64,000 nt of DNA from Oscillospiraceae bacterium (GCA_015066295.1 SVOR01000004.1:558-64557), one strand, 5' to 3'; shown: positions 9,009 through 29,676, counted from the first letter of the stretch. Translations and numbers: made by a program. The notes: generated by a model not told the origin, from the letters alone.

Positions 9009-9023
9009 AAATCAGCACTCCTT

Positions 9024-11452: not shown

Positions 11453-11454
11453 TC

Positions 11455-12495: not shown

Positions 12496-12524
12496 TTGAT
12501 AAATTCAACATATTATGATAAAAT
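12496..12524 (+). promoter_or_regulatory. candidate sigma-A promoter of nrdR
   Basis: TTGATA (12496-12501), 17-nt spacer, TAAAAT (12519-12524). Confidence 0.45.
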
Positions 12525-12561
12525 ACGTATGTATATACTATATAGTGTGGGGGATTTAAAG

Positions 12562-13014
12562 ATGAAATGTCCTTTTTGCGGTGATGAAGAAAGCAAGGTA
12601 ATCGACTCGCGTCCGACCGACGAGGGTGAGCGTATTCGCAGACGTAGAGAGTGCTTAAAATGCGGCAAGCGTTTTACCACCTACGAAATTATTGAGAGTC
12701 TGCCGATTATCGTAATTAAGAAGGATAAGTCGCGCGAAAGCTTTAACCGTGATAAGCTTATGAACGGTATTTTGCGTGCTTGTGAAAAGCGTCCGATTTC
12801 TATCAACACGCTTGACAATATGATTGACGAGATTGAGGTTACAATTCAGAACTCACTCGACCGCGAGGTTACAAGCGATAAAATTGGTGAGCTTGTTATG
12901 GATAAGCTCAAAAACATCGACGAGGTTGCATACGTTAGATTTGCATCGGTTTACCGTCAGTTTAAGGATATCACAACCTTTATGGATGAATTAAATAAGT
13001 TAATTTCTAAATAA
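12562..13014 (+). CDS. nrdR: transcriptional repressor NrdR
   Basis: [19 protein letters not shown]...[12 protein letters not shown] zinc ribbon plus ATP-cone; start moved from 12496 to ATG 12562. Confidence 0.9.
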
Positions 13015-13022
13015 AACACCGA

Positions 13023-13060
13023 AAGCGTAGTATTTTAATAAAATACTACGCTTTTTTATT
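13023..13060 (+). terminator. intrinsic terminator after nrdR
   Basis: Stem AGCGTAGTATTTT / AAAATACTACGCT followed by TTTTTT. Confidence 0.8.
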
Positions 13061-13135
13061 ATATAATACTTGTAATTATTGGCAAAATCTGCAATAATAG
13101 TATAGAATATGGAAATATGTTTTGAGGTGACTGAC

Positions 13136-14797: not shown

Positions 14798-14801
14798 CAA
14801 A

Positions 14802-16493
14802 ATGGAAGAAATTAAAAACGTAAACGAAGCGGAAAACACAACCCCTTCTAATTTTATACTTGATTTTATTGATAAGGACTTAGAGGAAGGCGTTTACAAC
14901 TGCGTGCAGACACGCTTCCCGCCCGAGCCTAACGGATATCTTCATATAGGTCACGCCAAGGCTATCTGCATTGACTTTGGTACTGCACAAAAGTACGGCG
15001 GCAAATGCAACCTTCGTCTTGACGATACCAACCCCACCAAAGAGGACGTTGAGTACGTTGACGCCATTAAAGAGGATATTGAGTGGTTGGGCTTTAAGTG
15101 GGACAACGTATTTTTTGCATCGGACTATTTTGATTTTATTTACGAATGTGCGCTAAAGCTTATTGATTTAGGACTTGCCTACGTTGACGAATTATCTCCC
15201 GACGAAATTCGTGAATATCGCGGCACCTTAACCGAACCCGGCAAAGAAAGCCCCTATCGTAACCGCCCCATTGCCGAGACCAAGGATTTATTTGCACGTA
15301 TGACGGCAGGTGAATTCGAAAACGGCGCAATGGTTTTGCGCGCTAAAATCGATATGGCTTCATCTAACCTTAATATGCGTGACCCCATCATCTACCGCAT
15401 TATGAAGGCGACCCACCACCGCACAGGTGACAAATGGTGTGTATACCCGATGTATGACTTTGCTCACCCGTTATCCGATGCCAAGGAGGGTGTAACACAC
15501 TCGCTGTGCTCATTAGAGTTCGAAAATCACAGGCCCCTTTACGACTGGTTCTTAAAGGTGTTAGAGATACCCACCCCGCCGCGTCAGATTGAGTTTGCGC
15601 GAATGAACGTAAACTACACCCTAACGAGTAAGCGCAAGTGCTTAAAGCTCGTAAACGATAATCTCGTTTCGGGTTGGGATGACCCCAGAATGGCAACTAT
15701 TTGCGGTATGCGCCGCAGAGGATACCCCGCCGAGGCTATAAGAGAATTTGTTAATAAGATTGGTGTTTCTAAGGCATATAGCGTAATTGACTATGCGCTT
15801 CTTGAATCCTGCGTTAGAGATTACCTTAACACCAATGCCGCGCGTGCTATGGCGGTGCTTCGTCCCTTAAAGGTGGTTATTGATAACTTCCCCGAGGATA
15901 AGACCGACGAAATCAGCGTTGATATTAACCCGAACAAGCCCGAGCTTGGCAAAAAGACGGTGCTTTTCTCAAAAGAAATTTATATCGAGCAGGATGACTT
16001 TATGTTAGACCCGCCCGGCAAGTACTTCCGTCTGTGCCCCGCAAAAGAGGTACGCTTAAAAGGTGCTTACTACATTAAGTACGCCTCTCACGAAACCGAC
16101 GAGGATGGTAATATTACGGTTGTTCACGCAACCTATGACCCCGAGTCATTCGGTGGTGAAACACCCGACGGCAGAAAGGTTAAGGGCACACTTCATTGGG
16201 TTAGTGCTAAGCACTGCAAGGATGCTACAATTCGCCTTTATGACCGACTTTTCAACGTTGAAAATCCCTCTGACGAGGAAGGCGTTGAGTCATTTGCCGA
16301 CAATCTTAATCCCGAATCGCTCGTAATTCTTGAAAACTGTAAAATTGAACCCGATTTAGCTCATGCTAATGCGGGAGATACCTTCCAGTTTATGCGTCAG
16401 GGTTATTTCTGTCTTGATAAAGATTCGAGTGACGATAATATCATATTCAACCGCACAGTTGCCCTTAAAGATTCTTTTGCTAAAAAGGTATAA
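14802..16493 (+). CDS. glnS: glutamine--tRNA ligase
   Basis: RFPPEPNGYLHIGHAKA, MYDFAHPLSDAKEGVTHSLCSLEF, LTSKRK. Confidence 0.9.
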   Translation: MEEIKNVNEAENTTPSNFILDFIDKDLEEGVYNCVQTRFPPEPNGYLHIGHAKAICIDFGTAQKYGGKCNLRLDDTNPTKEDVEYVDAIKEDIEWLGFKWDNVFFASDYFDFIYECALKLIDLGLAYVDELSPDEIREYRGTLTEPGKESPYRNRPIAETKDLFARMTAGEFENGAMVLRAKIDMASSNLNMRDPIIYRIMKATHHRTGDKWCVYPMYDFAHPLSDAKEGVTHSLCSLEFENHRPLYDWFLKVLEIPTPPRQIEFARMNVNYTLTSKRKCLKLVNDNLVSGWDDPRMATICGMRRRGYPAEAIREFVNKIGVSKAYSVIDYALLESCVRDYLNTNAARAMAVLRPLKVVIDNFPEDKTDEISVDINPNKPELGKKTVLFSKEIYIEQDDFMLDPPGKYFRLCPAKEVRLKGAYYIKYASHETDEDGNITVVHATYDPESFGGETPDGRKVKGTLHWVSAKHCKDATIRLYDRLFNVENPSDEEGVESFADNLNPESLVILENCKIEPDLAHANAGDTFQFMRQGYFCLDKDSSDDNIIFNRTVALKDSFAKKV

Positions 16494-16496
16494 ACT

Positions 16497-17246
16497 ATGA
16501 CTGTTAATGAAATTTATTCTTTTTTAAATGAATTTGCGCCCTTTGACACCGCCTGCGATTTTGATAATGCAGGACTGCTTATTGGTGGAAAAGATGCAGA
16601 AGTCGACAAGTGCATCGTTGCGCTCGACTGCACCGAAGCGGTAGTAGATCAGGCTATAAAAAAAGGCGCACAGCTAATAATCACACATCATCCCGTAATT
16701 TTTTCGGGACTTAAAAGCGTGCTTGCCGACTCGCTTGTGTATAGGCTAATCGAAAACAACGTTTCGGTAATAAGCGCACACACCAATTTAGATATTGCCG
16801 ATGGCGGTGTTAACGACTGCTTGGCAAAGGCCTTGGGACTAAACGATGTTAAAAAAATTGTTTGTGATGATGGTTTTTCCTTTAGATGCGGACAGTTAAA
16901 CGATGTTTTATCGCCCGAAGCTTTTGCAAAATACGTCGGCGAAAAACTTAATTTTTCACCACGTTTTACTGTGGGTAAAAAGGAAATTAAAACCGTTGCG
17001 GTTTGTGGTGGCAGCGGTGGCGATCTATTCCCCACCGCCATTAAAAACGGTTGTGACGCGCTCGTTACTGCCGACGTTAAGCACAATTTCTTTATTGATG
17101 CCGCAACACAGGGTTTTACCCTTATTGACTGCGGTCACTTTAACACCGAGGACGTTGTTATTGAACCGCTTAAAAATGCTTTAAGCGAAAAATTTGGTGA
17201 CGTGCAATTCTTCACCAACCATACGTCCTATATCCACTGCCTTTAA
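16497..17246 (+). CDS. Nif3-like dinuclear metal center protein (GTP cyclohydrolase 1 type 2 homolog)
   Basis: DNAGLLIGG, ITHHP, SAHTNLD, GHFNTE motifs. Confidence 0.85.
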   Translation: MTVNEIYSFLNEFAPFDTACDFDNAGLLIGGKDAEVDKCIVALDCTEAVVDQAIKKGAQLIITHHPVIFSGLKSVLADSLVYRLIENNVSVISAHTNLDIADGGVNDCLAKALGLNDVKKIVCDDGFSFRCGQLNDVLSPEAFAKYVGEKLNFSPRFTVGKKEIKTVAVCGGSGGDLFPTAIKNGCDALVTADVKHNFFIDAATQGFTLIDCGHFNTEDVVIEPLKNALSEKFGDVQFFTNHTSYIHCL

Positions 17247-17262
17247 ATGAGATGATTTGTAA

Positions 17263-18189
17263 ATGTTAGAAAATTTAATTACTGTAGCACTGCAGGTTGC
17301 GATGCTGTTTATTATGATTGCGGTTGGCTTCGCACTCGGCAAGACAAAATTGCTCGGCAAAACCGCAATTAAGGGGCTTGCAAATGTTGTTTTATACGTT
17401 GCTACCCCTGCCGTAATTCTGCAGGCTTTTACAACTGAACAAAAGACTCCCGAAAAGACCAAAAATCTTATTATTGTCGCTATAATAACGGTTATTTTGC
17501 ACGTTGTAATGATTTTACTTGCAAAGCTATTTATACGCCACAAGGACGATAAGGCGAACAGAATAATGCGCCTTTTGGTAATTTTCTCAAACTCGGGATA
17601 TATGGCATTCCCCTTGCAAAAAGCGATTTTAGGCGATATTGGTGTTTTTTACGGCGCTATGTTTGTTGCTATTTTCAATATATTTATGTGGACCTATGCC
17701 GTTTTTGTGGCAAGCGGCGACAAAAATACCTTGAAAATAAAAAACATACTGCTTAATCCAACCATTATTAGCGTAATTGTGTCGGTTTTACTTTATGCCT
17801 TTAGCATTAAGCTGCCAACATTTATTGCCGATGCCGTATCGGGACTTGGTAATCTTAACACACCACTTCCTATGATTATAATAGGATTTAACATATCGAC
17901 CTTCCCCTTTATTGAGCTCTTTAACGATAAAAGAGTGTATCTGCCGGGTGTGTTGCGACTTATATTTATGCCGCTATTATCCCTTGGTATTATGATTTTA
18001 CTCGGTGTACGCGGTTTACCGCTTATAGCCTGCACCATTGCGGCGAGTGCGCCAAGTGCGGCGGCACCCGTAATGTTTGCTACAAAATACGGGTTGGATG
18101 CACAGCTCGGCTCGAAAATCACGTCGCTTACAACTCTATTTTCAATTTTAACAATGCCCGTAATTGTGGCATTAGCACAAATACTATAA
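17263..18189 (+). CDS. AEC (auxin efflux carrier) family membrane transporter
   Basis: 308 aa; about 10 hydrophobic segments in two halves, typical of the family. Confidence 0.55.
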   Translation: MLENLITVALQVAMLFIMIAVGFALGKTKLLGKTAIKGLANVVLYVATPAVILQAFTTEQKTPEKTKNLIIVAIITVILHVVMILLAKLFIRHKDDKANRIMRLLVIFSNSGYMAFPLQKAILGDIGVFYGAMFVAIFNIFMWTYAVFVASGDKNTLKIKNILLNPTIISVIVSVLLYAFSIKLPTFIADAVSGLGNLNTPLPMIIIGFNISTFPFIELFNDKRVYLPGVLRLIFMPLLSLGIMILLGVRGLPLIACTIAASAPSAAAPVMFATKYGLDAQLGSKITSLTTLFSILTMPVIVALAQIL

Positions 18190-18230
18190 AAAAGAAAACG
18201 CTTGTACTATGAAGTACAAGCGTTTTTAAT
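18190..18230. terminator. bidirectional terminator between the AEC transporter gene and serS
   Basis: 13-bp stem AAACGCTTGTACT / AGTACAAGCGTTT. Confidence 0.8.
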
Positions 18231-19528
18231 TAGTTGTTTGATTTAATTTCGGCCTTGCCGCCCATATAAGGTCTTAGCGCCTCAGGAATACGTATTGTGT
18301 AGTTCTTACCGTCGAAATCAAGATTATTCTCAAGGAAGGCAATTAACATACGGGGCGGTGCAACAACGGTGTTATTAAGGGTATGGGGTAGATATTTTTG
18401 ACCGTCCTCGCCCTTAATTCTAATACCGAGTCGGCGTGACTGAGCGTCACCCAAATTTGAGCAAGAGCAAACCTCGAAATATTTTTGCTGTTTGGGACTC
18501 CAAGCCTCAACGTCGTATGACTTAATTTTTAAATCTGCAAGGTCACCCGAGCAGCACTCAAGTGTGCGTACGGGTATATCCATACTTCTGAAAAGCTCAA
18601 CCGAATAGCTCCACATCTTGTTAAACCATTCCATACTCTCCTCAGGCTTGCAGATAACTATCATTTCCTGCTTTTCAAACTGATGAATACGGTAAATACC
18701 GCGTTCCTCAATACCGTGGGCGCCCTTTTCCTTACGGAAGCAGGGCGAATAGCTGGTGAGTGTTAGCGGTAGAGCGGTTTCGGGTGTAATGGTATCAATA
18801 AACTTACCTATCATTGAGTGCTCGCTTGTACCGATAAGGTAGAGGTCCTCGCCCTCAATTTTATACATCATAGCATCCATTTCTTCAAAGCTCATAACGC
18901 CTGTAACAACGTTTGAGCGAATCATAAAGGGCGGTATGCAATAGGTAAAGCCCTTATCTATCATAAAGTCGCGCGCATAGGAAAGCACTGCACTGTGAAG
19001 GCGTGCAATATCACCCATAAGGTAGTAGAAGCCCTCACCTGCAACGCGGCCTGCCGCCTCTTTATCAATGCCGCAGAAATGCGCCATAATATCGGTGTGG
19101 TAAGGAATCTCAAAATCAACCTTTGTCTGCTCGCCGTACTGCTGAACCTCAACGTTTTCGCTATCGTCCTTGCCTATCGGAACGCTTTCGTCGATGATAT
19201 TAGGAATCTTCATCATTACCTGATTTAGCTTTGCGGTAAGCTCGTTTTCCTGCTCTTCAAGCTCTTTTAGACGGTCGGCCTGCTCGGATACTAACTTCTT
19301 CATATCCATAGCCTCGTCGCGCTTGCCCTGAGCCATTAGCATACCTATCTGCTTGCTGACCTTGTTGCGATTAGCACGAAGGTCGTTAGCCTCGTTTTGT
19401 GCAGCACGCTTCGCTGAGTCTAACTCGATAGCCTCATCAACGAGCGGTAATTTACCGTCCTTAAACTTCTTTTTGATATTTTCTTTTACAATTTCGGGAT
19501 TCTCTCTCAAAAATTTAATATCCAGCAT
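18230..19528 (-). CDS. serS: serine--tRNA ligase
   Basis: MLDIKFLRENPE N-terminus, coiled-coil arm, class II core (RIHQFEKQE, NNTVVAPPRMLIAFLEN). Confidence 0.92.
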   Translation of the reverse strand: MLDIKFLRENPEIVKENIKKKFKDGKLPLVDEAIELDSAKRAAQNEANDLRANRNKVSKQIGMLMAQGKRDEAMDMKKLVSEQADRLKELEEQENELTAKLNQVMMKIPNIIDESVPIGKDDSENVEVQQYGEQTKVDFEIPYHTDIMAHFCGIDKEAAGRVAGEGFYYLMGDIARLHSAVLSYARDFMIDKGFTYCIPPFMIRSNVVTGVMSFEEMDAMMYKIEGEDLYLIGTSEHSMIGKFIDTITPETALPLTLTSYSPCFRKEKGAHGIEERGIYRIHQFEKQEMIVICKPEESMEWFNKMWSYSVELFRSMDIPVRTLECCSGDLADLKIKSYDVEAWSPKQQKYFEVCSCSNLGDAQSRRLGIRIKGEDGQKYLPHTLNNTVVAPPRMLIAFLENNLDFDGKNYTIRIPEALRPYMGGKAEIKSNN

Positions 19529-19658
19529 TTTCTTTCCCCCAATAAGAGCGTTATCTTAAGTATTATATCATACCGAATTACTTTATTCAAGACCTTAATA
19601 ACATTTGACACAGGGTTTTGGCGGTAGTATAATTATAAAAAATACGCGAGGTGATTTT

Positions 19659-20537
19659 ATGCTCCTTTCAACACTAACGCTCCCTTTAAGCAAAAAATTC
19701 GGAGATGAAAAGGCCATTGAATTGATAGCCGCAGCCGGCTTTGATGCTTATGATATTTCTCTTACAAGACTTGTCGACGCCGACTACGCACTTAATTGTG
19801 AAAATTACGTATCGGTTGCTAAAAAATTACGTAAATTTGCTGATAATTTGGGTATTGTTTGTAATCAGTCGCACGCACCCTACCCATCAAGCAAGGGGGA
19901 TGAAAAGTGGGATGAAGAACGTTTTGAGCTTATAGTAAAGGCTATGGAAATTGCCGCTATTCTTGGTGCTAAAATTATTGTTGTTCACCCAAAACAACAT
20001 TTAAGATATTCGGACGCAAATAATAAATTTGAGCTATTTAAAATGAACGTCGATTTTTACAAACGCCTTGTGCCCTACTGTGAAAAATTCGGCATTAAGA
20101 TTGCCACCGAAAATATGTGGCAACGCGTGCCCGGCACCAATAAAATTGTCCACGCCCCCTGCTCGCACGCTGAGGAATTCAGCCGTTATATTGATGCCGT
20201 CGGCAGTGAGTGGATTGTCGGTTGCCTTGATATCGGTCATTTAGGACTCGTTGATGAGCCTATGTACGAGGCAATTACCACACTCGGTCACGAGCGTTTA
20301 CAGGCAATACACCTACACGATAACGATTATTTAAACGACCAGCACACCCTGCCCTTTATGTCAAAAACCAATTTTGACCCCTTTATTGAGGGATTAAAGG
20401 ATATTGACTACACGGGTGATATGACCTTTGAAACCGATAACTTTTTACGCAACGTGCCCGACGATTTTTTGCCCACCGCCCTTAAATTTATGGAGCAGAC
20501 GGGTAGATATTTCATTGAAAAAATTAAGGCAGAATAA
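19659..20537 (+). CDS. sugar phosphate isomerase/epimerase (xylose isomerase-like TIM barrel)
   Basis: ORF 19605-20537 (TTG); ATG 19659 follows GAGGTG RBS; VVHP, TENM, LDIGH, HLHDN pattern. Confidence 0.6.
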   Translation: MLLSTLTLPLSKKFGDEKAIELIAAAGFDAYDISLTRLVDADYALNCENYVSVAKKLRKFADNLGIVCNQSHAPYPSSKGDEKWDEERFELIVKAMEIAAILGAKIIVVHPKQHLRYSDANNKFELFKMNVDFYKRLVPYCEKFGIKIATENMWQRVPGTNKIVHAPCSHAEEFSRYIDAVGSEWIVGCLDIGHLGLVDEPMYEAITTLGHERLQAIHLHDNDYLNDQHTLPFMSKTNFDPFIEGLKDIDYTGDMTFETDNFLRNVPDDFLPTALKFMEQTGRYFIEKIKAE

Positions 20538-20574
20538 AAAAAGACCGCGGAAGAAAACTTCCGCGGTCTTAAAT
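20538..20574. terminator. bidirectional terminator
   Basis: 13-bp stem AAGACCGCGGAAG / CTTCCGCGGTCTT. Confidence 0.8.
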
Positions 20575-21183
20575 TTAGTCTTTCTTTTTTAGAGTTAAAA
20601 TAAATATGGCTATATATGGTAATGTAGCAATCAATGTTTCTACAAATACAGGTAAACCTATATCTGTTAAACCTAAAAAATCAAATGACATGCTTATTGC
20701 CTTAAAAACTATGCTATCTACAATTAGCGCAATAATCAATAAAGCCGCGTAGCTAATTGACCCATATTTTAAAAAGGTAATATATTTAAAATTTGAAAGT
20801 GTTCCTATAAACATAAAGACGGTAGCAACTAATATTAGAAATGAACATATAATGCCTAATATTACGCCTAATGTGAAGCGTGGATATAAAACACTATCAT
20901 AACAATAAATACCTGCACCAATGATTTTCACTGCAAATGCAACCGGAAGAATATAACCTTTAAATTTAAATTCCTTCTTTAAAAAAAGCATATATAACAA
21001 AATTAAAATAGGGGTTATCGCAGGCACAAAATACCTAAAAGCTAAATTAAGATTGCTTGGCTGAGCATCAAACCATATAATTTCTGGAACCAAAGCCATA
21101 TTTAAAATATGCAATATTGTATAAAGTGCCGTAAAAGAAATCAATATAATATTTTTTGGTTTGCTTTTAAATAAACTACTCAT
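20575..21183 (-). CDS. hypothetical multi-pass membrane protein
   Basis: 202 aa with about six hydrophobic segments; no family recognised. Confidence 0.4.
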   Translation of the reverse strand: MSSLFKSKPKNIILISFTALYTILHILNMALVPEIIWFDAQPSNLNLAFRYFVPAITPILILLYMLFLKKEFKFKGYILPVAFAVKIIGAGIYCYDSVLYPRFTLGVILGIICSFLILVATVFMFIGTLSNFKYITFLKYGSISYAALLIIALIVDSIVFKAISMSFDFLGLTDIGLPVFVETLIATLPYIAIFILTLKKKD

Positions 21184-21198
21184 AAAATCAACTCTCTT

Positions 21199-21234
21199 AA
21201 AACAAAAGATGTGCTACCAAAATGATAGCACATC
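21199..21234 (-). terminator. intrinsic terminator downstream of the orphan rubrerythrin 3' fragment (presumed original rbr terminator)
   Basis: Stem GATGTGCTA / TAGCACATC (21208-21234) followed on the minus strand by CTTTTGTTTT. Confidence 0.7.
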
Positions 21235-21257
21235 CGAAAAGTTTTTTCAACAATATA

Positions 21258-21317
21258 TTAACCAAAGTATCTTGCGAGAAGTCCCTCAAATGCCTTGCCG
21301 TGGCGAGCCTCGTCACG
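21258..21317 (-). pseudogene. orphan 3' end (last 19 codons plus stop) of a rubrerythrin gene, displaced by element insertion
   Basis: Minus-strand translation is [19 protein letters not shown]; homologous to 27923-27982 ([19 protein letters not shown]), the end of the intact gene. Confidence 0.8.
21276..21296. repeat. attL core (GAGAAGTCCCTCAAATGCCTT)
   Basis: Identical to 27941-27961; homology continues to 21317 with 3 synonymous mismatches. Confidence 0.8.
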
Positions 21318-21370
21318 AAACTATGTCAAAACCGCTTTAAATAAGGGAATTTCAGATATTAAATTTTAAA

Positions 21371-21390
21371 AATACCACTTGAAATCCCAC
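21371..21390 (+). promoter_or_regulatory. pair of putative integrase arm-type sites (AATACCAC, AATCCCAC)
   Basis: Same octamer family and AAATTTTAAA context as four copies at 27766-27838; located between attL core and int. Confidence 0.45.
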
Positions 21391-21430
21391 CATCCTTGAG
21401 CTATAATTGAGGCAGAAAAGGGGGATTTTT

Positions 21431-22738
21431 ATGGCAAAATATACAGGTGTTACCCAAAATACAGACGGTTCGTGGACATACAGAATTAAAATCAAACTGC
21501 CTGACGGTAGCGTAAAAGATACTCGCATTAAAAAGGACAGTCGGGGCAATCCGTTTTTAACTGCAAGACAGGCTTTTGAGACAAAGAAAGAACACGAGGC
21601 AAGAATAAGAGCCAATCCTGAGGATAATGCACCTAAGCAAAAAATTGTTACTCTGCAAGACGTTTACGACAATTATCTTGATACAGAAGCCAAAAAGAAA
21701 GCACCTGCCACCTTACGAAAGCAAGACAGTATGTGGCAAAATCATATCTCGCCTGTATTTGCTAATCGTGATATTAACTCTATTACTATTATAGAGCTTG
21801 ATACCTTTCTTGTCAATCTTTACAAATCCAAATCATATAAGTACACCGAAGGATTTTTAAAATTCTTTTATCTTTTGTTTGGACACGCCGATCGAATGGA
21901 AGTTATCGATCCTGACCGATATTTAAGAATGTTTGCCACCAAAGGAAAACGCTTGACAATGCCCGAAATGACACAAGAGGATTATACAAAGGCTGACGAA
22001 GATGCCGTTACATTTAACAATAGTGAATTAAAAATTATCAAAAAGGCATTTGAAAGCGAGGACGGAAACTTAAAACTTGCTTTTTATCTTGGTCTTTATG
22101 CAGGACTTAGAATTAGCGAGTGCTTCGGTCTGCGGTGGCAGGACATTGATTGGAATAATAGAACAATGAAAATCAGCCGACAAATGCAGTATGAAAACGG
22201 ACAAATTAAGCTTTGCCCTGTCAAAACGCTTAAAAGTGTTCGTACAGTTCTAATTCCTGAAGAATTGTATGCCGAACTTGATTTTCAAAATTCTTTGCAA
22301 ACACAACAAAAAAAGGTGTTAGGCAACGCCTACCGAAATACCGAGCGTGTTTATGACGAGGTTGCTGACTGTTGGATTGACGGTGGTGATTTCGTCAATC
22401 GCAAAAAAAACGGCGAATTGCTGACGGTAAATTCAATGAAATATTGGTCTAAGAAAATCACGCCTTTGCTTCACGCTGAAGCCGAAAGACAAGCGAGAGC
22501 TAAAAAAGGCATTCACTTAGACGAAATCGTGCCTGTCAAGTATAAGGATTTCAAATACCATTATTTACGCCACACCTACGCAAGTAATTGCGCGGCTCAA
22601 AATGTCAGTATGTATATGCTTATGGATATGATGGGTCATAAGAAAATTGACACAACCAAAAAATACTATATAAGCACCGATAATGACAGTTTGACCGAAC
22701 GTACCCGAAAATTGCTTGATGAAATGTATACATTTTAG
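21431..22738 (+). CDS. int: tyrosine-type site-specific recombinase/integrase with N-terminal AP2-like arm-binding domain
   Basis: ORF 21407-22738; GLRISECFGLRW (Arg), YLRHTYAS (HxxR), MMGH, TTKKYY (catalytic Tyr); N-terminal GVTQNTDGSWTYRIKI; ATG 21431 follows GGGGGA RBS. Confidence 0.9.
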   Translation: MAKYTGVTQNTDGSWTYRIKIKLPDGSVKDTRIKKDSRGNPFLTARQAFETKKEHEARIRANPEDNAPKQKIVTLQDVYDNYLDTEAKKKAPATLRKQDSMWQNHISPVFANRDINSITIIELDTFLVNLYKSKSYKYTEGFLKFFYLLFGHADRMEVIDPDRYLRMFATKGKRLTMPEMTQEDYTKADEDAVTFNNSELKIIKKAFESEDGNLKLAFYLGLYAGLRISECFGLRWQDIDWNNRTMKISRQMQYENGQIKLCPVKTLKSVRTVLIPEELYAELDFQNSLQTQQKKVLGNAYRNTERVYDEVADCWIDGGDFVNRKKNGELLTVNSMKYWSKKITPLLHAEAERQARAKKGIHLDEIVPVKYKDFKYHYLRHTYASNCAAQNVSMYMLMDMMGHKKIDTTKKYYISTDNDSLTERTRKLLDEMYTF

Positions 22739-22744
22739 AAATAG

Positions 22745-22776
22745 GAAATACCCTGCTTTTGTAGGGTATTTTTTAT
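22745..22776 (+). terminator. hairpin after int
   Basis: Stem AAATACCCT / AGGGTATTT followed by TTTTAT. Confidence 0.6.
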
Positions 22777-22809
22777 TTGCAAATTTCGGGTATGGGGAAG
22801 CTCTCGGCA

Positions 22810-22870
22810 GGGGCAATGCCCCGATAGAGCACAGACATTTGCGTGTCGAAAATGGTACTGTGTACCATTT
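22810..22870 (+). promoter_or_regulatory. candidate oriT (two inverted repeats directly upstream of the relaxase gene)
   Basis: GGGGC-AAT-GCCCC (22810-22822) and AAATGGTAC-TGT-GTACCATTT (22850-22870); the loop/stem contains GTGT, as at MobV-type nick regions. Confidence 0.4.
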
Positions 22871-22919
22871 ATCGACTCCGTTTTACGTCTTCTACTTTAG
22901 GGTTAAAGGCGGTGATAAA

Positions 22920-24206
22920 ATGTCAAAAATGAAAGCAACAATCAGAAACGGCAGGACAACAAACGCAGGGCGCGTCTTTAACGCTAACCACAACACGCGC
23001 CAAGAAACAAGGGCGGTCGAGGGGCATATCGACCACGACCGAACAGCGCAAAACTTGAATTTCAAGTTTTTAGCAGACGGCAGTATCGAAAAATGCGACA
23101 GCTTCGACTCAAAGGCTTTTGAAATTTCGCAGTATGAAATTTATTACGGCGAAGGTCAGGAAGCCAAAAATCAACGCTACAAAGCAGAGGCACACGCAGA
23201 CCGCTGTAAAACGGTTGCAGAGGTGTATGCTACCCCAAAGACTGCACCACTTGAAACTATTTTACAGCTCGGCAATATGCACACCGATATTGCACCCGAG
23301 GAACGTGAACGGATTTTGACCGTATCGGCTTTTCAGCTTATAGATGGATTGAGGGCAAAATATGGGGACAACCTGAAAATATTGTCCCTCTCTATTCATA
23401 AGGATGAAGCCGTAATCCACGGGCATTGCCGTTACACAATAATGGGGCGCGACCGTTTCGGGTACTCTGTCCCAAATCAAAATCAAGGCTTTCAAGAAAT
23501 GGGAATTGAACGCCCAAACCCTGACAAGCCATTGAGCCGATACAACAACCCCTTAATGACTTTTTCGGACGAACTGCGCGAAACATTTTATGCCCTCTGC
23601 GAGAGAAACGGAAATATCGAGATTGATCGTGAGGTCAAAAACCCAAGCCAAAAGCACAGGGACATTCTTGTTTACAAGTGCGAACAACTGCAAAAGAACG
23701 TTGCCGAGCTGACGGCAGAGCGCAACACCCTGCGAGACCAAAACGGCATATCAAAAGTTATTCAGGACAGTTTTAACGAGGTTGAAATCGACATCGAAGC
23801 CGAAGCAGTACCCGAGCGCACCCACAGGGGTCAGGTGGTCGAAGCCGAAAAGGTCAAAATCAAGAAAACCGATTTTGATTGGCTGAAGGAACGCGCAAAA
23901 CTCACAATCGGCATAAAAACGGCTTTTGATAAACTGCAGCGCTACGGCAAACAGCTTTGGCAAGAGGTCAGCAGGGACAAAATTGTGTCCGACCTGACAG
24001 AAAGAGCTGAAACGGCAGAACGCAAAGCAAGAGAGAAAGAAGCGGTTGCCAAACAGCTTACCGACAACCTTGACCGCGCCTATCAAGACCTACACGAACA
24101 AGAGGAATTTATGCGACGTATTGGGGTATGGCAGAGATTTTGCAACTTTATAAAAGAAAAATTTAGGGAACGTCAGGAAGCTGAACACTCCGACCGCACC
24201 CGATAA
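22920..24206 (+). CDS. mob: MobV-family (Pre/Mob) relaxase
   Basis: ORF 22716-24206; start moved to ATG 22920 (MSKMKATIRNGR); NANHNTRQ (HxxR-like) and IHKDEAVIHGH (HxDE..xHxH) motifs; coiled-coil C-terminus. Confidence 0.75.
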   Translation: MSKMKATIRNGRTTNAGRVFNANHNTRQETRAVEGHIDHDRTAQNLNFKFLADGSIEKCDSFDSKAFEISQYEIYYGEGQEAKNQRYKAEAHADRCKTVAEVYATPKTAPLETILQLGNMHTDIAPEERERILTVSAFQLIDGLRAKYGDNLKILSLSIHKDEAVIHGHCRYTIMGRDRFGYSVPNQNQGFQEMGIERPNPDKPLSRYNNPLMTFSDELRETFYALCERNGNIEIDREVKNPSQKHRDILVYKCEQLQKNVAELTAERNTLRDQNGISKVIQDSFNEVEIDIEAEAVPERTHRGQVVEAEKVKIKKTDFDWLKERAKLTIGIKTAFDKLQRYGKQLWQEVSRDKIVSDLTERAETAERKAREKEAVAKQLTDNLDRAYQDLHEQEEFMRRIGVWQRFCNFIKEKFRERQEAEHSDRTR

Positions 24207-24222
24207 AAAGAGAGGTATGATT

Positions 24223-24723
24223 ATGGAAAATTTAGACTTAAATCAGGTCATAGACCTAAATGAAAGCATTGAAAGTATGAAAGCAAGGCTTGAAACTGTA
24301 AAAGCAGAGTTAAGCATAGAGGAAGCCATGCGCGAGGCTTTTTCGAAAGACCTCACGCCGAAAATCTTGCGCCGTAAAGTGCGCTATAAAAGGGTAAACG
24401 GCGTTAAAGAGCCGTTTGCAGAGGTAACGATTGACGAAAATGTGCTTAATGACTTGGTTGAAGCTGTTAGCTGTCCTGCAAGGATAAAGCAGAATTATGA
24501 GAAATTGCAAACTCTCGGCGCACAGCTAAAGCGCGAAACCTCGCAAACTGCAATTTACAAACGCTGTATCGAGGCAGAGGCAGAAATTAAACGCCTGAAA
24601 ACTGAAAATATGCTTTTACAGGCGAAAGTTACGGAACGCGACCGAGAAATTGCAGAAATCTATACACAGGGCGCAGAGCCTTATATTGACTATGAGGAAC
24701 AAACCTTTGATTTAGAAATCTAA
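24223..24723 (+). CDS. hypothetical coiled-coil protein of the element
   Basis: ORF 24217-24723; ATG 24223 is better spaced from the AGAGAGG RBS; no family recognised. Confidence 0.4.
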   Translation: MENLDLNQVIDLNESIESMKARLETVKAELSIEEAMREAFSKDLTPKILRRKVRYKRVNGVKEPFAEVTIDENVLNDLVEAVSCPARIKQNYEKLQTLGAQLKRETSQTAIYKRCIEAEAEIKRLKTENMLLQAKVTERDREIAEIYTQGAEPYIDYEEQTFDLEI

Positions 24724-25515
24724 CCAATCAGGACTTGCCGAGAACGGCAGGTCTTTTTTTGTCGGCAAACGCCGTAAAAGTGCCGTCAGGTATAGACCGC
24801 CGTATGTGTCCTCGCAGTAATCAAGGCTATTTTCGACCGTTTCAAAGCCGTTAAAATGGGTTTCAAGGTATATTGCGCTGTCGGTGTCCCTTTCGCAGAA
24901 ATCAATCATTTTCTTATGCGAGATACGACCGTCGCGCTCAGTGATCGTCGGCTGTTCAAGGGTTCGGCTACCACACCACCGCTTAAAAGTCAGGCGGTCG
25001 TCCTCGTCGTCCTTGCCTTTTGTTAGGTACACAGCAAGAGCAGTCAAGCCGTCAGCTTCAAAGCGCAGACGATCGGCTGAAACAGTCCCCTGTCCCCAAA
25101 GAGCCGAAAGCTCGTCCCTGCTCAAGCCGTCGCTGATTACAAGGTGGGCGTGTAGGCGTTGGTGTTCCTCGCCATACTCAATGATATATATGTATTTTGG
25201 CTCAAGCCCTGCTTTTGCATATTTTCGCTTTACTCGGCGCAAGTAGTTCTGCACCACCCTTTGACAGTCGGCAACCGTTTCGGGTAGGCTGTCCTCGTTA
25301 AAGGTGAGGGTTACAAAAAGGTCTTTTGGGTTAAAATTCGTATGCAGAAGCCTACGCAGACGGTCAGTGGCGTGTCTATGATTTAGTCGCTGTTGCACCT
25401 CTCTTGTCGGCTTCTTCTTTTGGCTTCTTCCTCTCGTTTGGGTGTAAACAGGATATATAGCCACCTCTATGTAGTCCCCACAAATGTATTTGCGCTCTCT
25501 GTATGTTCTTTGCAT
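24712..25515 (-). CDS. rep: HUH-endonuclease rolling-circle Rep-like protein
   Basis: Motif I FVTLTF, motif II RLHAHLVI (HUH), motif III LAVYLTKG (Yxx K); AAAGGAAA RBS. Confidence 0.6.
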   Translation of the reverse strand: MQRTYRERKYICGDYIEVAIYPVYTQTRGRSQKKKPTREVQQRLNHRHATDRLRRLLHTNFNPKDLFVTLTFNEDSLPETVADCQRVVQNYLRRVKRKYAKAGLEPKYIYIIEYGEEHQRLHAHLVISDGLSRDELSALWGQGTVSADRLRFEADGLTALAVYLTKGKDDEDDRLTFKRWCGSRTLEQPTITERDGRISHKKMIDFCERDTDSAIYLETHFNGFETVENSLDYCEDTYGGLYLTALLRRLPTKKDLPFSASPDWLDF

Positions 25516-25572
25516 TTTCAGTTTCCTTTCTATGTGTGGTCGTTATGTTAATACCTTTTACAAGCTCGGTAA

Positions 25573-25589
25573 ACAGAACGGTGTTCTGT
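25573..25589. promoter_or_regulatory. perfect hairpin ACAGAAC-GGT-GTTCTGT upstream of rep (candidate double-strand origin/nick hairpin)
   Basis: 7-bp stem with 3-nt loop, 58 bp upstream of the rep start in a 213-bp non-coding gap. Confidence 0.3.
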
Positions 25590-25728
25590 AGGCAAAAGGC
25601 ATATATCAGTATAGAATTTGAAAATATTATATGTTTATTTGAAATCTCGAGCAGGGCAAAAAACTATCAATTTTGAAAAAATGCAAAAAAAATACGCCCA
25701 CACTTTCGTGCAGGCGTAAAACCTCTTT

Positions 25729-26940
25729 TTATCCAATTATATTATCGTGGTATTGCGTTACTTCTTCTGTTGTTCCGTCCATATACTCTACAACAATTTT
25801 ATTCATTTTATAGGTGCTTACAGTATTATTGTAGAATTTTGTCATATTTCGTTTTGTGTCTGTTGTTGCGTGTGCATTCAAAGGTCCTGTGAATTTTACG
25901 CTAACATAGGGATCCCAACCTATGCTATCATAAACTTGGTCGCCGACAGCATTATAACAACTCCACTTTAATGTAACATATTTAATTTGTTTGTCGGTAT
26001 TATTTCTTATTCTGAAATTCCACTCAACGCCACCTACATAGTCAATGTTATGACACCAATCTAAAATAGTTACAGGCGATTGTTTTCTGAATTCCTTGTC
26101 GCAACGGGAACATATACCGCAGTCGGTCGTATGACCTAAAGGCTCACCTTTAACTTCGCCACAACTACAAGTTTCAGGTTTATCACAAGTGGATTTGCTA
26201 TATTTGTGCTTGTGCTTTTCAACCTTGCTTTCTGTTGTGGTATTTTCATTGCTATTCTTATCTGTTGTAGAATTTTCTTTTTCAACCTGCTTTTTATCTG
26301 TTGTTGTTTCACCACAAACAGAACATTTTTTCACAGTCTTTTCTGCGGTATCTTCAACAATTTCAAAAGTATGCTCCAACTTATCTATATACTCTGTGTT
26401 GTCAGTATCGCACAAATCACAATGTGATTTAATATGTCCTTGTTCCGTGCAAGTGGGTTTAACATTTTCTTTCTCAACCCATTTATGTTCACAAAAGTTT
26501 GCAGGATTTAAAATAGAAAAAATTATGGCAATCGCGATATATACACAAAATAAACCAAGAGCACTCATACCTGCGTTATACTTATTAAATAAAGGGATTT
26601 TCTTTCTAAATTTAAAGTTAGATAAAAATATGTATGGTACTAACATACTTATTATCATACTAAGAGTTGTAACAAAATCACTCATTGAGGCTATAGACGT
26701 AACACTCCCCAATATAGCTAATCCTGTGAAAACTAAATAAATTATAGATAAAACTTTTTTCCAAGCTTTATTAGAACGAAATCCTAACAGTTTTTTTGGT
26801 TGAATATTTTTCGTTCCACAATTAGTGCAAAAATCCCCTATGTACTCTGCGCCGCATTTTTTACACTTTGTTGTTGCTTTTTCTCCACATTTGGAGCAAA
26901 AATTACCCTCAAATTCCGTACCGCATTTTTTACAAATCAT
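25729..26940 (-). CDS. double zinc-ribbon membrane protein with Cys-rich extracytoplasmic region (element cargo)
   Basis: CKKCG..CSKCG and CKKCG..CTNCG at the N-terminus; 3 hydrophobic segments; PTCTEQG../CSVCG/CGICSRC motifs; beta-rich C-terminal domain; AAGGGGAG RBS. Confidence 0.55.
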   Translation of the reverse strand: MICKKCGTEFEGNFCSKCGEKATTKCKKCGAEYIGDFCTNCGTKNIQPKKLLGFRSNKAWKKVLSIIYLVFTGLAILGSVTSIASMSDFVTTLSMIISMLVPYIFLSNFKFRKKIPLFNKYNAGMSALGLFCVYIAIAIIFSILNPANFCEHKWVEKENVKPTCTEQGHIKSHCDLCDTDNTEYIDKLEHTFEIVEDTAEKTVKKCSVCGETTTDKKQVEKENSTTDKNSNENTTTESKVEKHKHKYSKSTCDKPETCSCGEVKGEPLGHTTDCGICSRCDKEFRKQSPVTILDWCHNIDYVGGVEWNFRIRNNTDKQIKYVTLKWSCYNAVGDQVYDSIGWDPYVSVKFTGPLNAHATTDTKRNMTKFYNNTVSTYKMNKIVVEYMDGTTEEVTQYHDNIIG

Positions 26941-27006
26941 TTTTTACTCCCCTTATTTTTTTAATTATTTTATCATAAATTTATAATGATTACAAGGTGC
27001 AAGTAT

Positions 27007-27477
27007 TTATGTTGCTACATTTATTATTTTAAGTCCGTTTTTTTTGGCGTAGTTGACGGTGTAAAAAGTTCCGCCCTTTTCTTCGGTTAGGTAAGATATA
27101 CACACGCTACTGTGGTCTACTAAATGCCGATTACGTTTCTGCATACAACCGTTAAAGTAGTTTTCAGAGGTATATGTTACCTTGTCAGCAAGCCCCTTTA
27201 TATATTCATACATACGCACGTCGTCAGCGTTCCACCCTTTTGTCTGTGCTAAACACGGCAAAACAAGTATAAGTTTGATTTGTGGATATTGGCTTTTTAG
27301 GTCTAAAACTGCCTGTGCGCTTATGGTGTCAAAACCCAACGCACCGCCACAACCGAAATAACAATATCCGTCATTTATAAGTTGTATAAGTATTGTTTTT
27401 AATCGGTCGGCAATTATATTGCGTTCTGCGTGAGGTATTTTTCTATGCCCTGTAAAACAAACGGTTTTATTCCTCAT
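27007..27477 (-). CDS. SLOG-superfamily DUF1273 (YpsA-like) protein (element cargo)
   Basis: ORF 27007-27528; start moved to ATG 27477 (MRNKTVCFTGHRK); FTGHR, GGALGFD and LVLPC motifs typical of DUF1273. Confidence 0.6.
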   Translation of the reverse strand: MRNKTVCFTGHRKIPHAERNIIADRLKTILIQLINDGYCYFGCGGALGFDTISAQAVLDLKSQYPQIKLILVLPCLAQTKGWNADDVRMYEYIKGLADKVTYTSENYFNGCMQKRNRHLVDHSSVCISYLTEEKGGTFYTVNYAKKNGLKIINVAT

Positions 27478-27765
27478 AAATATCCCCAAAACAAAAAAAG
27501 GTGTATCCCCATTGAGAGAATACACCATAAAAAATATATTCCCCTAAATGTTGCTACACACTCACACTACCTTCAATCGCTTGGAGAATAGGGTAAAAAG
27601 AGGAAATATACTTTTTTACAAAAGTATTATTCCCCATTCAAAACGATGTGAAGGCACAATATTCTATTTAAATGTGAGTTTGTAGCATAAACAGTATACC
27701 ACAATATGCTACATTTAGCAATGCTTTTAAGATTTTTTTGAAAATTTGTTTATTTATATACTAAA

Positions 27766-27838
27766 AATCCCACTTGCAATCCCACAGGGTATATTTTTCG
27801 TAATTTATAGAAATTTTAAATCCCACCTAAAATCCCAC
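27766..27838 (+). promoter_or_regulatory. four direct AATCCCAC copies in two pairs (putative integrase arm-type sites, right arm)
   Basis: AATCCCAC at 27766-27773, 27778-27785, 27819-27826 and 27831-27838, all in the same orientation, 100-175 bp inside the attR core. Confidence 0.5.
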
Positions 27839-27842
27839 AATT

Positions 27843-27878
27843 ATATAAAAACAGGCACGGAACAAAATCCGTGCCTGT
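27843..27878 (-). terminator. intrinsic terminator now serving the rubrerythrin gene (element-borne)
   Basis: 11-bp stem ACAGGCACGGA / TCCGTGCCTGT followed on the minus strand by TTTTTATA. Confidence 0.75.
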
Positions 27879-27922
27879 TGGCGTAAAATACTTATAAATC
27901 CTTTATTTATGCGGTTTTTCGC

Positions 27923-28465
27923 TTATTTGAAATAGCGGTTGAGAAGTCCCTCAAATGCCTTTCCGTGTCGAGCCTCATCACGTGCCATTTCATGTACTGT
28001 ATCGTGAATAGCATCAAGATTTAACTCTTTAGCAAGCTTTGCAAGCTCGAATTTGCCGAGTGTTGCGCCGTTTTCAGCGTCAACACGCATTTCAAGATTT
28101 TTCTTGGTAGAGTCGGTTACTACCTCGCCGAGCAGCTCTGCAAATTTTGCTGCATGCTCTGCCTCTTCATAGGCTGCCTTCTCCCAATAAAGACCGATTT
28201 CAGGATAGCCTTCACGATGAGCAACGCGTGCCATTGCAAGATACATACCAACCTCGGTGCATTCACCCATGAAGTTCTCACGAAGACCTGCTAAAATTCT
28301 TTCATCAACGCCCTTAGCAACACCTACAACGTGCTCGGCAGCCCAGGTCTTTTCGCCAGCCTGCTCTTGAAACTTAGATGCCGGTGCCTGGCAGATGGGG
28401 CACTTGTCGGGAGCCTCATTACCCTCGTGGGTATAACCGCAAATTGTACAAACGAACTTTTTCAT
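27923..28465 (-). CDS. reverse rubrerythrin (N-terminal rubredoxin-like domain, then diiron domain)
   Basis: CTICGY...CPICQAP at the N-terminus; then [29 protein letters not shown] diiron motifs. Confidence 0.85.
27941..27961. repeat. attR core (GAGAAGTCCCTCAAATGCCTT)
   Basis: Identical to 21276-21296. Confidence 0.8.
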
Positions 28466-28487
28466 AAAAACATCTCCTAAAAATAAA

Positions 28488-28874
28488 TTATTTATTATTT
28501 GTATTTATACAAGAACTGCAAAGACCACTAAAAACATATCCGCTTAAATCGACCTCGCAGCCAAGTTTATTCTGCAAAAAGTCTTTAAGATTGTTTTTTG
28601 GCACCTCACAGTCTAATATAGCGCCGCAGTTGTGACAGTAAAAGTGCATATGCTCTTTTGTATCACCATCGTAATGCTGAAAGCCGTCGCCCACCGAAAG
28701 CTCAAGCACGTCGCCGTCCTTTTTTAGCTCGGTAAGATTTCGGTAAACTGTGCCGAGGCTGATTTTTGGTAATTTCTCTCGGCATTTTTCGTAAACCCAC
28801 TGTACCGTTGGATGAGTATCGGTCGAGCGTAAAACTTCAACTATTACTTCCCTTTGTTTTGAATAGTTTCTCAT
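28488..28874 (-). CDS. perR: Fur-family transcriptional regulator, PerR-like
   Basis: Winged-helix N-terminus, HFYCHNCG...CSSC zinc site; immediately upstream of rubrerythrin in the same orientation. Confidence 0.7.
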
Positions 28875-28891
28875 AAATTTTACCTCAAAAA

Positions 28892-28906
28892 TAGTAATGG
28901 TTACTA
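28892..28906 (-). promoter_or_regulatory. candidate PerR/Fur box (7-1-7 imperfect palindrome TAGTAAT-G-GTTACTA)
   Basis: Lies between the -10 element and the perR start codon. Confidence 0.4.
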
Positions 28907-28920
28907 CTTTTTACAATCTT

Positions 28921-28948
28921 ATTATACCATACCTTTTAAAAATGTCAA
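28921..28948 (-). promoter_or_regulatory. sigma-A promoter of the perR-rubrerythrin operon
   Basis: Minus strand reads TTGACA, 16 nt, TGG-TATAAT (extended -10). Confidence 0.6.
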
Positions 28949-28973
28949 TAGTTTTTTGAAAAAATTTTTCTTG

Positions 28974-29002
28974 TTGACAATTATCCTTTTTTGTATGATA
29001 AT
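28974..29002 (+). promoter_or_regulatory. candidate sigma-A promoter of rex
   Basis: TTGACA (28974-28979), 17 nt, GATAAT (28997-29002). Confidence 0.45.
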
Positions 29003-29040
29003 GTAGATGTGAAAAATTTTGTTAAAGGAAGGTGCGGTTA

Positions 29041-29676
29041 ATGAATAACAAAGGCATATCCCCTTACGTTATTAAAAGGTTGCCGCGATATTATAGATTT
29101 TTGGGTGAGCTTTCAAACTCAGGCATTAAGCGTATTTCGTCGGCAGAGCTAAGTCGCAGAATGGGACTTACGGCAAGCCAAATTCGTCAGGACCTCAACT
29201 GCTTTGGTGGTTTTGGTCAGCAGGGCTACGGCTACAACACCGATATTCTCAGAGATGAGATTGGTGCAATTTTGGGTGTTGACAGACCCAAAAAGGCAAT
29301 ACTTATTGGTCTTGGTAATTTAGGTAAAGCCATTACGCTACACCTTAATTTTGAAGAAAAGGGATTTTCGCTTATAGGTCTTTTTGACAGTAAGGAGTCG
29401 CTTGTTGGCAACGTAATTCGCAACATACCCATTCGCTCTACCAACACGTTGGATGACTTTTGCCGCGAAAACAAGCCCGAGGCCGCAATACTGTGCATAC
29501 CAAAAACCGCTGTGCCCGATATTGCCGACCACCTTATTAAGCTTGGCATTAAGGGTTTTCTTAACTTCAGTCATTATGATTTAGCACTTAAATATGAAGG
29601 CATCGTTGTTGAAAACGTACATTTTGGCGATAATCTAATGACGCTTTCCTACAATATTAAAAATATGGATAAATAA
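29041..29676 (+). CDS. rex: redox-sensing transcriptional repressor Rex
   Basis: ISPYVIKRLPRYYRFL, SSAELSRRMGLTASQIRQDL, GGFGQQGYGYN, Rossmann GLGNLG; ATG 29041. Confidence 0.9.
   Translation: MNNKGISPYVIKRLPRYYRFLGELSNSGIKRISSAELSRRMGLTASQIRQDLNCFGGFGQQGYGYNTDILRDEIGAILGVDRPKKAILIGLGNLGKAITLHLNFEEKGFSLIGLFDSKESLVGNVIRNIPIRSTNTLDDFCRENKPEAAILCIPKTAVPDIADHLIKLGIKGFLNFSHYDLALKYEGIVVENVHFGDNLMTLSYNIKNMDK

Follow-up and report, generated by a model that had tools for sequence, protein, structure and literature searches.

In a stretch of 64,000 nucleotides (nt) of DNA from an Oscillospiraceae bacterium (GCA_015066295.1 SVOR01000004.1:558-64557), referred to here as the window, a reverse rubrerythrin gene (rbr; 27923-28465, minus strand) encodes a protein of 180 amino acids (aa) which has an N-terminal rubredoxin-like domain and matches the Pfam families RUBY_RBDX and Rubrerythrin. 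The exact protein is present on 22 contigs in public data. Upstream of rbr lies a gene of the Fur/PerR family (28488-28874, minus strand; Pfam), and beyond the 3′ end of rbr lie six open reading frames (ORFs), all of them intact, and then an orphan copy of the rbr 3′ end (21258-21317, minus strand) consisting of 19 codons and a stop. The ORFs include a tyrosine integrase gene (int) at the end next to the orphan, a candidate relaxase gene (mob) and a replication initiator gene (rep). We consider it very probable that this region is a site-specifically integrated element which regenerates the end of the rbr gene. With almost the same assurance, we interpret window 21276-27940 (6,665 bp, core to core) as an integrative and mobilizable element (IME) that entered by tyrosine-integrase recombination of its own attachment site (attP) with a host site (attB) in the last ~20 codons of rbr.

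A repeat search of the window recovered 21276-21317 and 27941-27982 as a 42-nt direct repeat with 93% identity, and this forms part of two 60-nt segments, 21258-21317 and 27923-27982, which match at 47/60 positions. The first 21 nt of the repeat, GAGAAGTCCCTCAAATGCCTT, are identical in both copies and are called the core below (21276-21296 on the left, 27941-27961 on the right). In the 21 nt that follow there are three differences, none of which changes the minus-strand protein: GAC/GAT (D), CGC/CGA (R) and GGC/GGA (G). On that strand the right copy terminates the 180-aa ORF with ...GLLNRYFK*. The frame preceding the left copy reads FKAVLT*F, which is unrelated to rbr, and neither frame reading nor the repeat search gave any rbr homology to the right of 21317. 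An earlier reading of this DNA from the sequence alone (the sequence-only reading) had described two homologous 60-bp segments, with an inner 42 bp made up of 21 identical positions and then three synonymous differences, both encoding the last 19 rbr codons and stop on the minus strand and the right one continuous with the intact gene; the repeat search, translation and the Pfam-supported ORF bear out each part of this description.

As attachment sites, the left segment (attL, 21258-21317, minus strand) is made up of the native host tail (ARYFG*; 21258-21275, minus strand), the core and the element-borne P′ part of the rbr-like segment (21297-21317, minus strand). The right segment (attR, 27923-27982, minus strand) comprises element-borne surrogate last codons and stop (NRYFK*; 27923-27940, minus strand), the core, and the host-gene part (27962-27982, minus strand).

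The insertion and its exact boundaries are established by contigs in which the site is empty. The reconstructed pre-insertion protein, ending ...GLLARYFG, exists as an exact sequence in a public protein collection (P0002). Its 40-kb contig (L013) carries Fur, rbr, a 202-aa membrane protein, AP endonuclease and SerRS in window order, has no element, and has rbr directly adjoining the gene for the 202-aa membrane protein. By BLAST it is 96-98% identical to the window at the nucleotide level on both flanks; one alignment stops at window 21302, the other begins at 27941, and the two overlap by 27 nt of L013 at the core, so that window 21303-27940 is exactly the extra DNA. Two further contigs, L014 and L015, have a junction identical in structure. 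The tail and terminator of the orphan copy are the native ones, which directly follow rbr in the empty-site contigs, and the NRYFK tail, the sequence following it and the terminator at 27850-27879 are therefore element-borne. Such a site, with rbr ending ...LLARYFG* and then the native terminator, had been predicted from the sequence and was found in L013.

These contigs also bear on the idea that the left copy is the remnant of a decayed second rubrerythrin paralogue, with unrelated genes in between. Nothing beyond the fragment's existence speaks for it, and it is refuted by the empty site, where a single gene bears the left copy's tail and terminator. The sequence-only reading had pointed to further rbr homology beyond 21317, or to genomes holding both copies and no int, mob or rep, as findings that would tell against an insertion; homology was looked for and none was found, no such genome was found, and the same 60-nt limit recurs in independent elements. 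We give the paralogue a negligible probability.

In L013, L014 and L015 alike, attB departs from the 21-nt core at the base that corresponds to window 21291 / 27956, which is C in place of T (CTCAAACGCCTT), and it has other synonymous differences as well. Speculatively, the C allele might make a poorer integration target, if the base falls within the overlap region. The predicted strand exchange must take place inside the core, that is, within the codons for KAFEGLL.

The native rbr terminator is a hairpin at 21207-21235 (minus strand) with a T run to ~21197 (ΔG −19.7 kcal/mol, z −4.9); the same sequence follows rbr in L013-L015, and in the window it is now parted from rbr by the element. The element-borne surrogate at 27850-27879 (minus strand) has a 12-bp stem and a T run to ~27840 (ΔG −27.6 kcal/mol, z −4.6). 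Both hairpins fold far better than shuffled controls, and they match the terminators that had been placed at 21199-21234 and 27843-27878. Rfam gave no match at the gathering threshold in 20000-29500. At the protein level, the insertion replaces at most 12 rbr codons and alters 2 residues (A to N and G to K). The ExxH iron-ligand motif of rubrerythrins, which we take to be EARH here, is still host-encoded after insertion.

The surrogate end is a genuine rbr end, since in an unrelated human-gut contig (L104) the 3′ end of a native rbr gene matches the attP fragment of the element at 59/60 positions. The native gene there is a 407-aa rbr-fusion (rubrerythrin-containing) ORF (L104:5772-6995), directly followed by a gene (L104:5246-5641) whose product has a rubredoxin-like N-terminus. 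By its sequence, the L104 end is a perfect attB occurring in nature, and the L104 host is a candidate for the preferred host of the element or for the source of its surrogate end.

At the other end of the element, int (21431-22738, plus strand) begins 114 nt away from position 21317, where the attL fragment ends, and encodes a 435-aa protein which matches Pfam Phage_integrase (6e-17), a SAM-like N-terminal domain and PHROG 1 (6e-43). The catalytic R-K-H-R-H/W-Y set of tyrosine recombinases is complete, with R227, K265, H377, R380, H403 and Y413 invariant in an alignment of 26 sequences including the window protein. Its closest relative among solved structures is Tn1549 Int, with E = 3e-13 over the catalytic domain (6EN0/6EMY). 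A hairpin and T run following the gene (22746-22771, plus strand) is read as the int terminator.

Integrase homologues with E ≤1e-20 number 408, and the 90% identity cluster of the window integrase has 35 members. Beyond the window, nine further contexts were examined, with integrase identities of 37-91%: L096/L097/L098 (91%), L108, from an Acutalibacteraceae metagenome-assembled genome (MAG) and in the same 90% cluster as the window integrase, L099 (80%), L100 (71%), L101/L102 (67%), L105 (60%), L106/L107 (50%), L016 (47%) and L017 (37%). The last two were taken from a scan of a genome collection for integrase relatives, where the matches listed were mostly distant, with 20-30% identity. An orphan rbr tail lies beside int in 9/9 contexts and an intact rbr at the far end in 8/9 (the L101/L102 contigs end first); counting the window, 10/10 contexts sit at rbr, which establishes the target specificity of the family. 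In alignments of the window, L096, L099, L100 and L101/L102, the rbr-like homology ends 60 nt from the stop codon, and at the far ends of L096, L099, L100, L105, L106 and L108 the element supplies the stop codon itself, with a hairpin and a T run after it. This family-wide location at rbr, together with surrogate ends of the elements' own, supports a site-specific, gene-end-restoring design. The search for sister elements and their att sites that the sequence-only reading proposed thus turned up integrases all at rbr 3′ ends, and its central claim, a site-specific insertion in which the attP arm supplies a replacement C-terminus and terminator, agrees with both the sisters and the empty site. 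The most distant element, in L017 (1268-1366, 9875-11194 and 11324-11422), has int adjoining the orphan tail and an orientation to rbr opposite to that of all the others.

The conserved architecture of the att regions is a further family trait. An 8-mer, AATCCCAC, occurs six times without mismatch in the 64-kb window, and 5/6 of these copies are at the two element ends, where they form tandem pairs in one orientation no more than ~175 nt from the ends. The P′ arm has one candidate arm-type pair, AAATACCAC and AAATCCCAC, spaced 12 nt start to start (21370-21390, plus strand), and the P arm has two, at 27765/27777 and 27818/27830 (27765-27838, plus strand), orientated as the P′ pair is. The 8-mer occurs at equivalent end positions in L096, L099, L100, L101 and L102. 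We infer from this arrangement, which fits the pattern expected of integrase arm-type sites, that the clusters are candidate sites of this kind; Pfam reported no arm-binding domain in the integrase.

Just inside the element ends there is an imperfect inverted repeat. Its P′ box, AAAACCGCTTTAAATAAGGG (21328-21347), is the inverted partner of the P box, CCTTTATTTATGCGGTTTT (27900-27918), which is just downstream of the surrogate stop; 0/300 shuffles reach the observed score, and in attP the two boxes would bracket the 60-nt rbr-like segment. The inverted pair beats shuffles in 5/7 elements and co-varies in L105. Most sister elements have the box CCCTTTATTTATGCGGTTTTT immediately after the stop and an inverted copy just past the rbr-like fragment at the int end, and in L106 the box is apparently in direct, not inverted, orientation. 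An accessory factor may bind at the end boxes. The best sigma-70-like promoter for int (TTGAAA at 21379, a 17-nt spacer and TATAAT ending at 21407; 11/12 matches) overlaps the P′ arm-type pair at 21370-21390, and integrase binding at that pair could repress its own gene.

Outside the int module the family is variable. The mob gene is of a divergent type or encodes a canonical MobV relaxase (L099 scores above the NF041497 cut-off), the replication module is HUH, RepL, or Rep_OBD with a helicase, and cargo varies even among close relatives. Integrases at least 90% identical carry different cargo in another host background (L108). These observations can be set against an origin as a plasmid with a captured rbr fragment, integrated by RecA-dependent (Campbell-type) recombination with the integrase merely incidental. 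A rolling-circle Rep and a Mob as in small plasmids, and 60 nt of homology between the copies, would suit that origin, which we nevertheless judge highly improbable. Uninterrupted identity extends over just 21 nt, a length which is very short for RecA; int is always beside the rbr fragment across the 37-91% identity range, whereas the Rep and Mob modules differ from element to element or are missing; the site has conserved arm-type repeats on its flanks; and there is no DNA match among the 72,556 plasmid records of PLSDB.

The candidate relaxase gene (22920-24206, plus strand) encodes a 428-aa protein, which the sequence-only reading had called a MobV relaxase. Against Pfam Mob_Pre (PF01076) it scores 16.6 bits (cut-off 25.5; E = 0.0075), below threshold. 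Mob_Pre is matched by 12/18 of its homologues, at best with 1e-10, and over the C-terminal half it shares 38% identity with the Mob_Pre protein of L100. The motif definitions for MOBV, which we take to be HxxR for motif I and HxDExxxHxH for motif III, both apply to this protein: across 25 homologues, H24, N25 and T26 of H24-N-T-R27 are invariant and R27 is kept in at least 90%, and the named H, D and E residues of H160-K-D162-E163...H167-G-H169 are invariant. An AlphaFold model (mean pLDDT 74) has MobM (4lvm_C) as its top PDB match, a weak one (E = 5e-3, probability 0.87, TM-score 0.36). With moderate confidence, we regard the protein as a divergent MobV-like relaxase; the family, the motifs and the weak fold match agree with the earlier call, which its own sub-threshold Pfam score makes weaker than it was stated to be.

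The gene after mob encodes a 168-aa coiled-coil protein (24217-24723, plus strand) that matches no Pfam, NCBIfam or PHROG family. A 166-167-aa ORF follows mob in L096, L097, L108 and L109, and the protein is probably a mobilization accessory protein, part of the backbone rather than of the cargo. Three cargo genes had been counted earlier; with this conserved mob partner taken out, two are left. The origin of transfer (oriT) would lie in the spacer between the int terminator and mob (22780-22919), where there is a hairpin, AAATGGTAC-TGT-GTACCATTT (22851-22871), that is partly conserved in L096.

On the opposite strand, rep (24712-25515, minus strand) encodes a 267-aa HUH rolling-circle replication initiator with the motif HLHAHLV. 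It matches PF23343 (3e-12, 47 bits; cut-off 27.8) and PHROG 3584 (1e-64), and is ~35% identical to the replication initiation protein of Clostridium phage PhiS63. A tyrosine integrase and an HUH Rep had both been reported between the repeats, and the Pfam match of the one (6e-17) and the PF23343 and PHROG 3584 matches of the other make these assignments solid. The product of the first cargo gene (25729-26940, minus strand) is 403 aa long, begins with a zinc-ribbon domain and has predicted membrane segments; it has no significant Pfam or NCBIfam family and is absent from the sisters L096 and L108. The second (27007-27528, minus strand) encodes a 173-aa YpsA/SLOG-family protein (Pfam YpsA, 2.4e-19). 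The cargo was considered as a source of defence genes and the idea was dropped, as PADLOC gave only a weak match of the YpsA protein to ShosA of the Shosta system (E = 0.001). The same protein also weakly matches DprA-like families; a part in defence or DNA processing is conceivable, though unsupported. Among the sisters, a PF04439-like cargo protein of L100 has no NCBIfam match, and it is not put forward here as a resistance determinant.

The relatives of Rep raise the question of whether the region could be a phage satellite or what is left of a cryptic prophage. Rep is ~35% identical to Clostridium and Latilactobacillus phage initiators, as well as to Microviridae-type Reps, and the integrase matches PHROG integrase families. 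However, capsid, terminase, portal and packaging families have no match among the six ORFs (Pfam, NCBIfam and PHROGs), no phage integrase is >25% identical to that of the window, and the candidate relaxase here is of Mob_Pre type, with clear MobV relaxases in L099 (NF041497), L100, L105 and L106. We therefore think a phage origin very unlikely. Searches of the six ORFs with Pfam and NCBIfam gave no match to VirB4, VirD4 or other type IV secretion system families. As in other IMEs, the element has its own integrase at one end and att direct repeats, with an unoccupied attB in relatives (L013-L015).

Taken as an IME, the element would work as follows. Its attP would contain a 60-nt copy of the rbr 3′ end (19 codons and stop), with the conserved box, the strong terminator and two AATCCCAC arm-type pairs on one side and the inverted box, one arm-type pair and int on the other. 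Strand exchange in the 21-nt core would leave the host tail and terminator behind as the attL orphan and, at attR, join the gene body to the element's tail, with the element's terminator ending the transcript. Because that tail completes the gene and that terminator ends its transcript, rbr would stay intact. Int, with a directionality factor or host factors, would excise a circle, which the HUH Rep could copy by a rolling-circle route; the MobV-like relaxase would nick oriT in the int-mob spacer, and a conjugative element in the same cell would provide the mating pore for transfer.

Whether these later steps still occur is a separate question, and that the element is currently mobile and mobilizable we consider somewhat more likely than not, with less confidence than the integration itself. 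Several points weigh against our reading of a working IME. Intersecting the attL/attR identity blocks of the elements places the crossover no more precisely than the 21-nt core: CCCTCAAATGC is common to the window, L099 and L108, the L096 and L106 blocks start at GCCTT, and no stretch of 6-8 nt is shared by the sisters, probably because orphan copies drift after integration. No ORF for an excisionase or recombination directionality factor was recognised in the element. The circular junction that the sequence-only reading had proposed as a check did not appear in either pattern scan, as an exact-pattern scan of viral contigs for the attP junction gave 0 matches and the single match of the attP pattern in metagenomes, L104, proved to be a native rbr gene rather than a circle. 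The relaxase assignment leans on evidence that is sub-threshold or indirect; the protein has no NCBIfam (including NF041497) or PHROG match, and sequence searches of PDB chains, with the single protein or with an 18-sequence family profile, did not find MobM. For oriT there is a candidate hairpin, only partly conserved in L096. Every contig with the exact flanking 202-aa protein is occupied, and the empty site comes from a lineage differing by 2-4%, which indicates a presence/absence polymorphism between lineages and not ongoing excision.

Some of these points would fit an element that did integrate site-specifically and is now a fixed, immobile resident, that is, a domesticated or decaying island. 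The lack of a recognised excisionase and of a circular junction, and the occupancy of all contigs with the exact neighbouring host protein, are what it would lead one to expect, and integrase-less remnants do accumulate at the site elsewhere, as in L105. We nevertheless find this unlikely, given that the six ORFs and the catalytic residues of the integrase are intact, that the core copies are identical over 21 nt, and that integrases at least 90% identical, from the cluster of 35 members, occur with other cargo in another host (L108). There is also an element-only contig in two samples. This 6,647-bp contig (L114; Logan SRR7032241_461670) is 100% identical to window 21289-27935 and has no host flank; it equals the element minus 18 nt (27936-27953) of the att region and breaks in att at both ends. 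The break at att suggests several junction types in those samples, either a circle, which is unproven, or multiple hosts.

Some differences between related contigs lie in the flanks. L002, compared with window 12524-28465, is a mosaic, in which the element and the whole left flank have 13 mismatches over ~15.7 kb. From window 28256 on, the 5′ part of rbr is ~78% identical (46 mismatches/210 nt), no nucleotide match to Fur is detectable, and identity in Rex is ~67%. Either the metagenome assembly is chimeric across the shared element, or the contig represents a true recombinant or a second host. Further away, window 7103-11466 is a strain-variable block which L013 lacks. The block adjoins a UvrD/PcrA helicase gene and encodes two leucine-rich-repeat proteins of BspA type (7262-8164 and 8157-9008), along with a 768-aa ORF without a Pfam match. 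L013 in turn has ~365 bp extra at window 32456/32457.

Elements of this general kind are well known. IMEs with a single tyrosine integrase at the 3′ ends of housekeeping protein genes include IME_SagNEM316_rplL, IMESag-rpsI, IME_Sga2069_rpmE, SGI1 (trmE) and ATE-1/Gisul2 (guaA), and one of their direct repeats holds the gene end, which allows integration without disruption of the gene (PMC5704250). Their targets include rplL, rpmE, rpmG, rpsI, guaA, trmE and yicC, and Rep genes and tandem arrangements are also reported (PMC5704250). The window element resembles them in having the int module at one end, a candidate relaxase gene without recognised mating-pore genes, a Rep, as is often the case, and variable cargo, and tandem accretion is seen both in those IMEs and in the rbr family (e.g. 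L105). It differs from them in its target, as rubrerythrin is not in the portion of Table 1 of PMC5704250 that was covered, and in its hosts, which are uncultured Oscillospiraceae and Acutalibacteraceae. MOBV1 IMEs are abundant in Faecalibacterium, of the same order as the window host, with frequent tandems and remnants (PMC12084326). These IMEs of Faecalibacterium and other Oscillospiraceae likewise combine a MobV-type relaxase with a site-specific integrase, but the candidate relaxase of the window is a divergent branch which on its own falls below the Pfam and NCBIfam cut-offs. Rubrerythrin is nowhere mentioned in the main text of PMC12084326, and full-text searches found, within the library covered, no paper with rubrerythrin as an att target, an absence which is no proof of novelty.

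Elements that target tRNA or tmRNA genes (NBU1, many prophages and genomic islands) are alike in that the attP copy of the target 3′ end regenerates the gene and in that arm-type sites, here candidate ones, flank the core. Here, by contrast, the target is protein-coding, two residues are changed and a complete Rho-independent terminator is supplied. The sequence-only reading had described gene-end restoration as familiar from tRNA/tmRNA elements; the likeness is real, but the trait is not special to them, and a review already describes it as the norm among IMEs that integrate in protein-coding genes (PMC5704250). Tn1549/Tn916-type integrases provide the best profile match among solved structures, and the imperfect inverted repeats just inside the ends are a further resemblance; those transposons, however, have many AT-rich targets and use heteroduplex coupling sequences, whereas the rbr family is strictly site-specific in 10/10 contexts. 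The MOBV prototype, MobM of pMV158, is alike in the HxxR and HxDE...HxH motifs and is the best, though weak, fold match, but identity is ~15%, the TM-score of 0.36 is normalised to the target, and the window protein has a long C-terminal coiled coil. The mechanism is thus already known, integration without disruption of the target being a reviewed norm for IMEs. What is new here is probably rubrerythrin as the target gene, together with a sizeable and previously unremarked family.

The rbr site can be empty, hold the window element or hold another one, as is seen from the empty-site contigs and from L102, where a different sister element (67% integrase) occupies the equivalent site beside a terminator homologous to the native one of the window. 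In L105 (7655-9898 and 18404-18502) three rbr tails follow one another, two of them separated by a ~2.1-kb remnant that has no integrase, and in L096 and L101 the orphans have element-type boxes on their outer side. The outer box of the L096 orphan (L096:9700-9912) adjoins three serine-recombinase genes, and three small genes lie between the orphan and the host flank in L108 (8584-9911). A broader proposal, which we find plausible though a little short of probable, is that in Oscillospirales, and in further Clostridia of gut and rumen, the rbr 3′ end serves as a dedicated hot spot for integration that has not been described before. It would be used by a large, old clade of integrases (37-91% identity) whose attP has co-evolved a complete surrogate gene end, with last codons, stop, box and terminator, and whose elements compete and pile up in arrays. 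More speculatively, the Fur/PerR-linked oxidative-stress locus is transcribed towards the element, and read-through or occupancy could couple the element to oxidative stress.

The window offers a clean, fully delimited gene-end-restoring IME in an uncultured member of the Oscillospiraceae, with attL, attR and a matching empty site, and rubrerythrin joins the housekeeping genes that serve as attachment sites. An orphan rbr tail beside int is a simple search signature, with which finders of IMEs and integrative and conjugative elements could delimit many elements in gut and rumen MAGs, tandem arrays included. For the rubrerythrins themselves, the C-terminal residues of many database entries may be element-derived rather than native.

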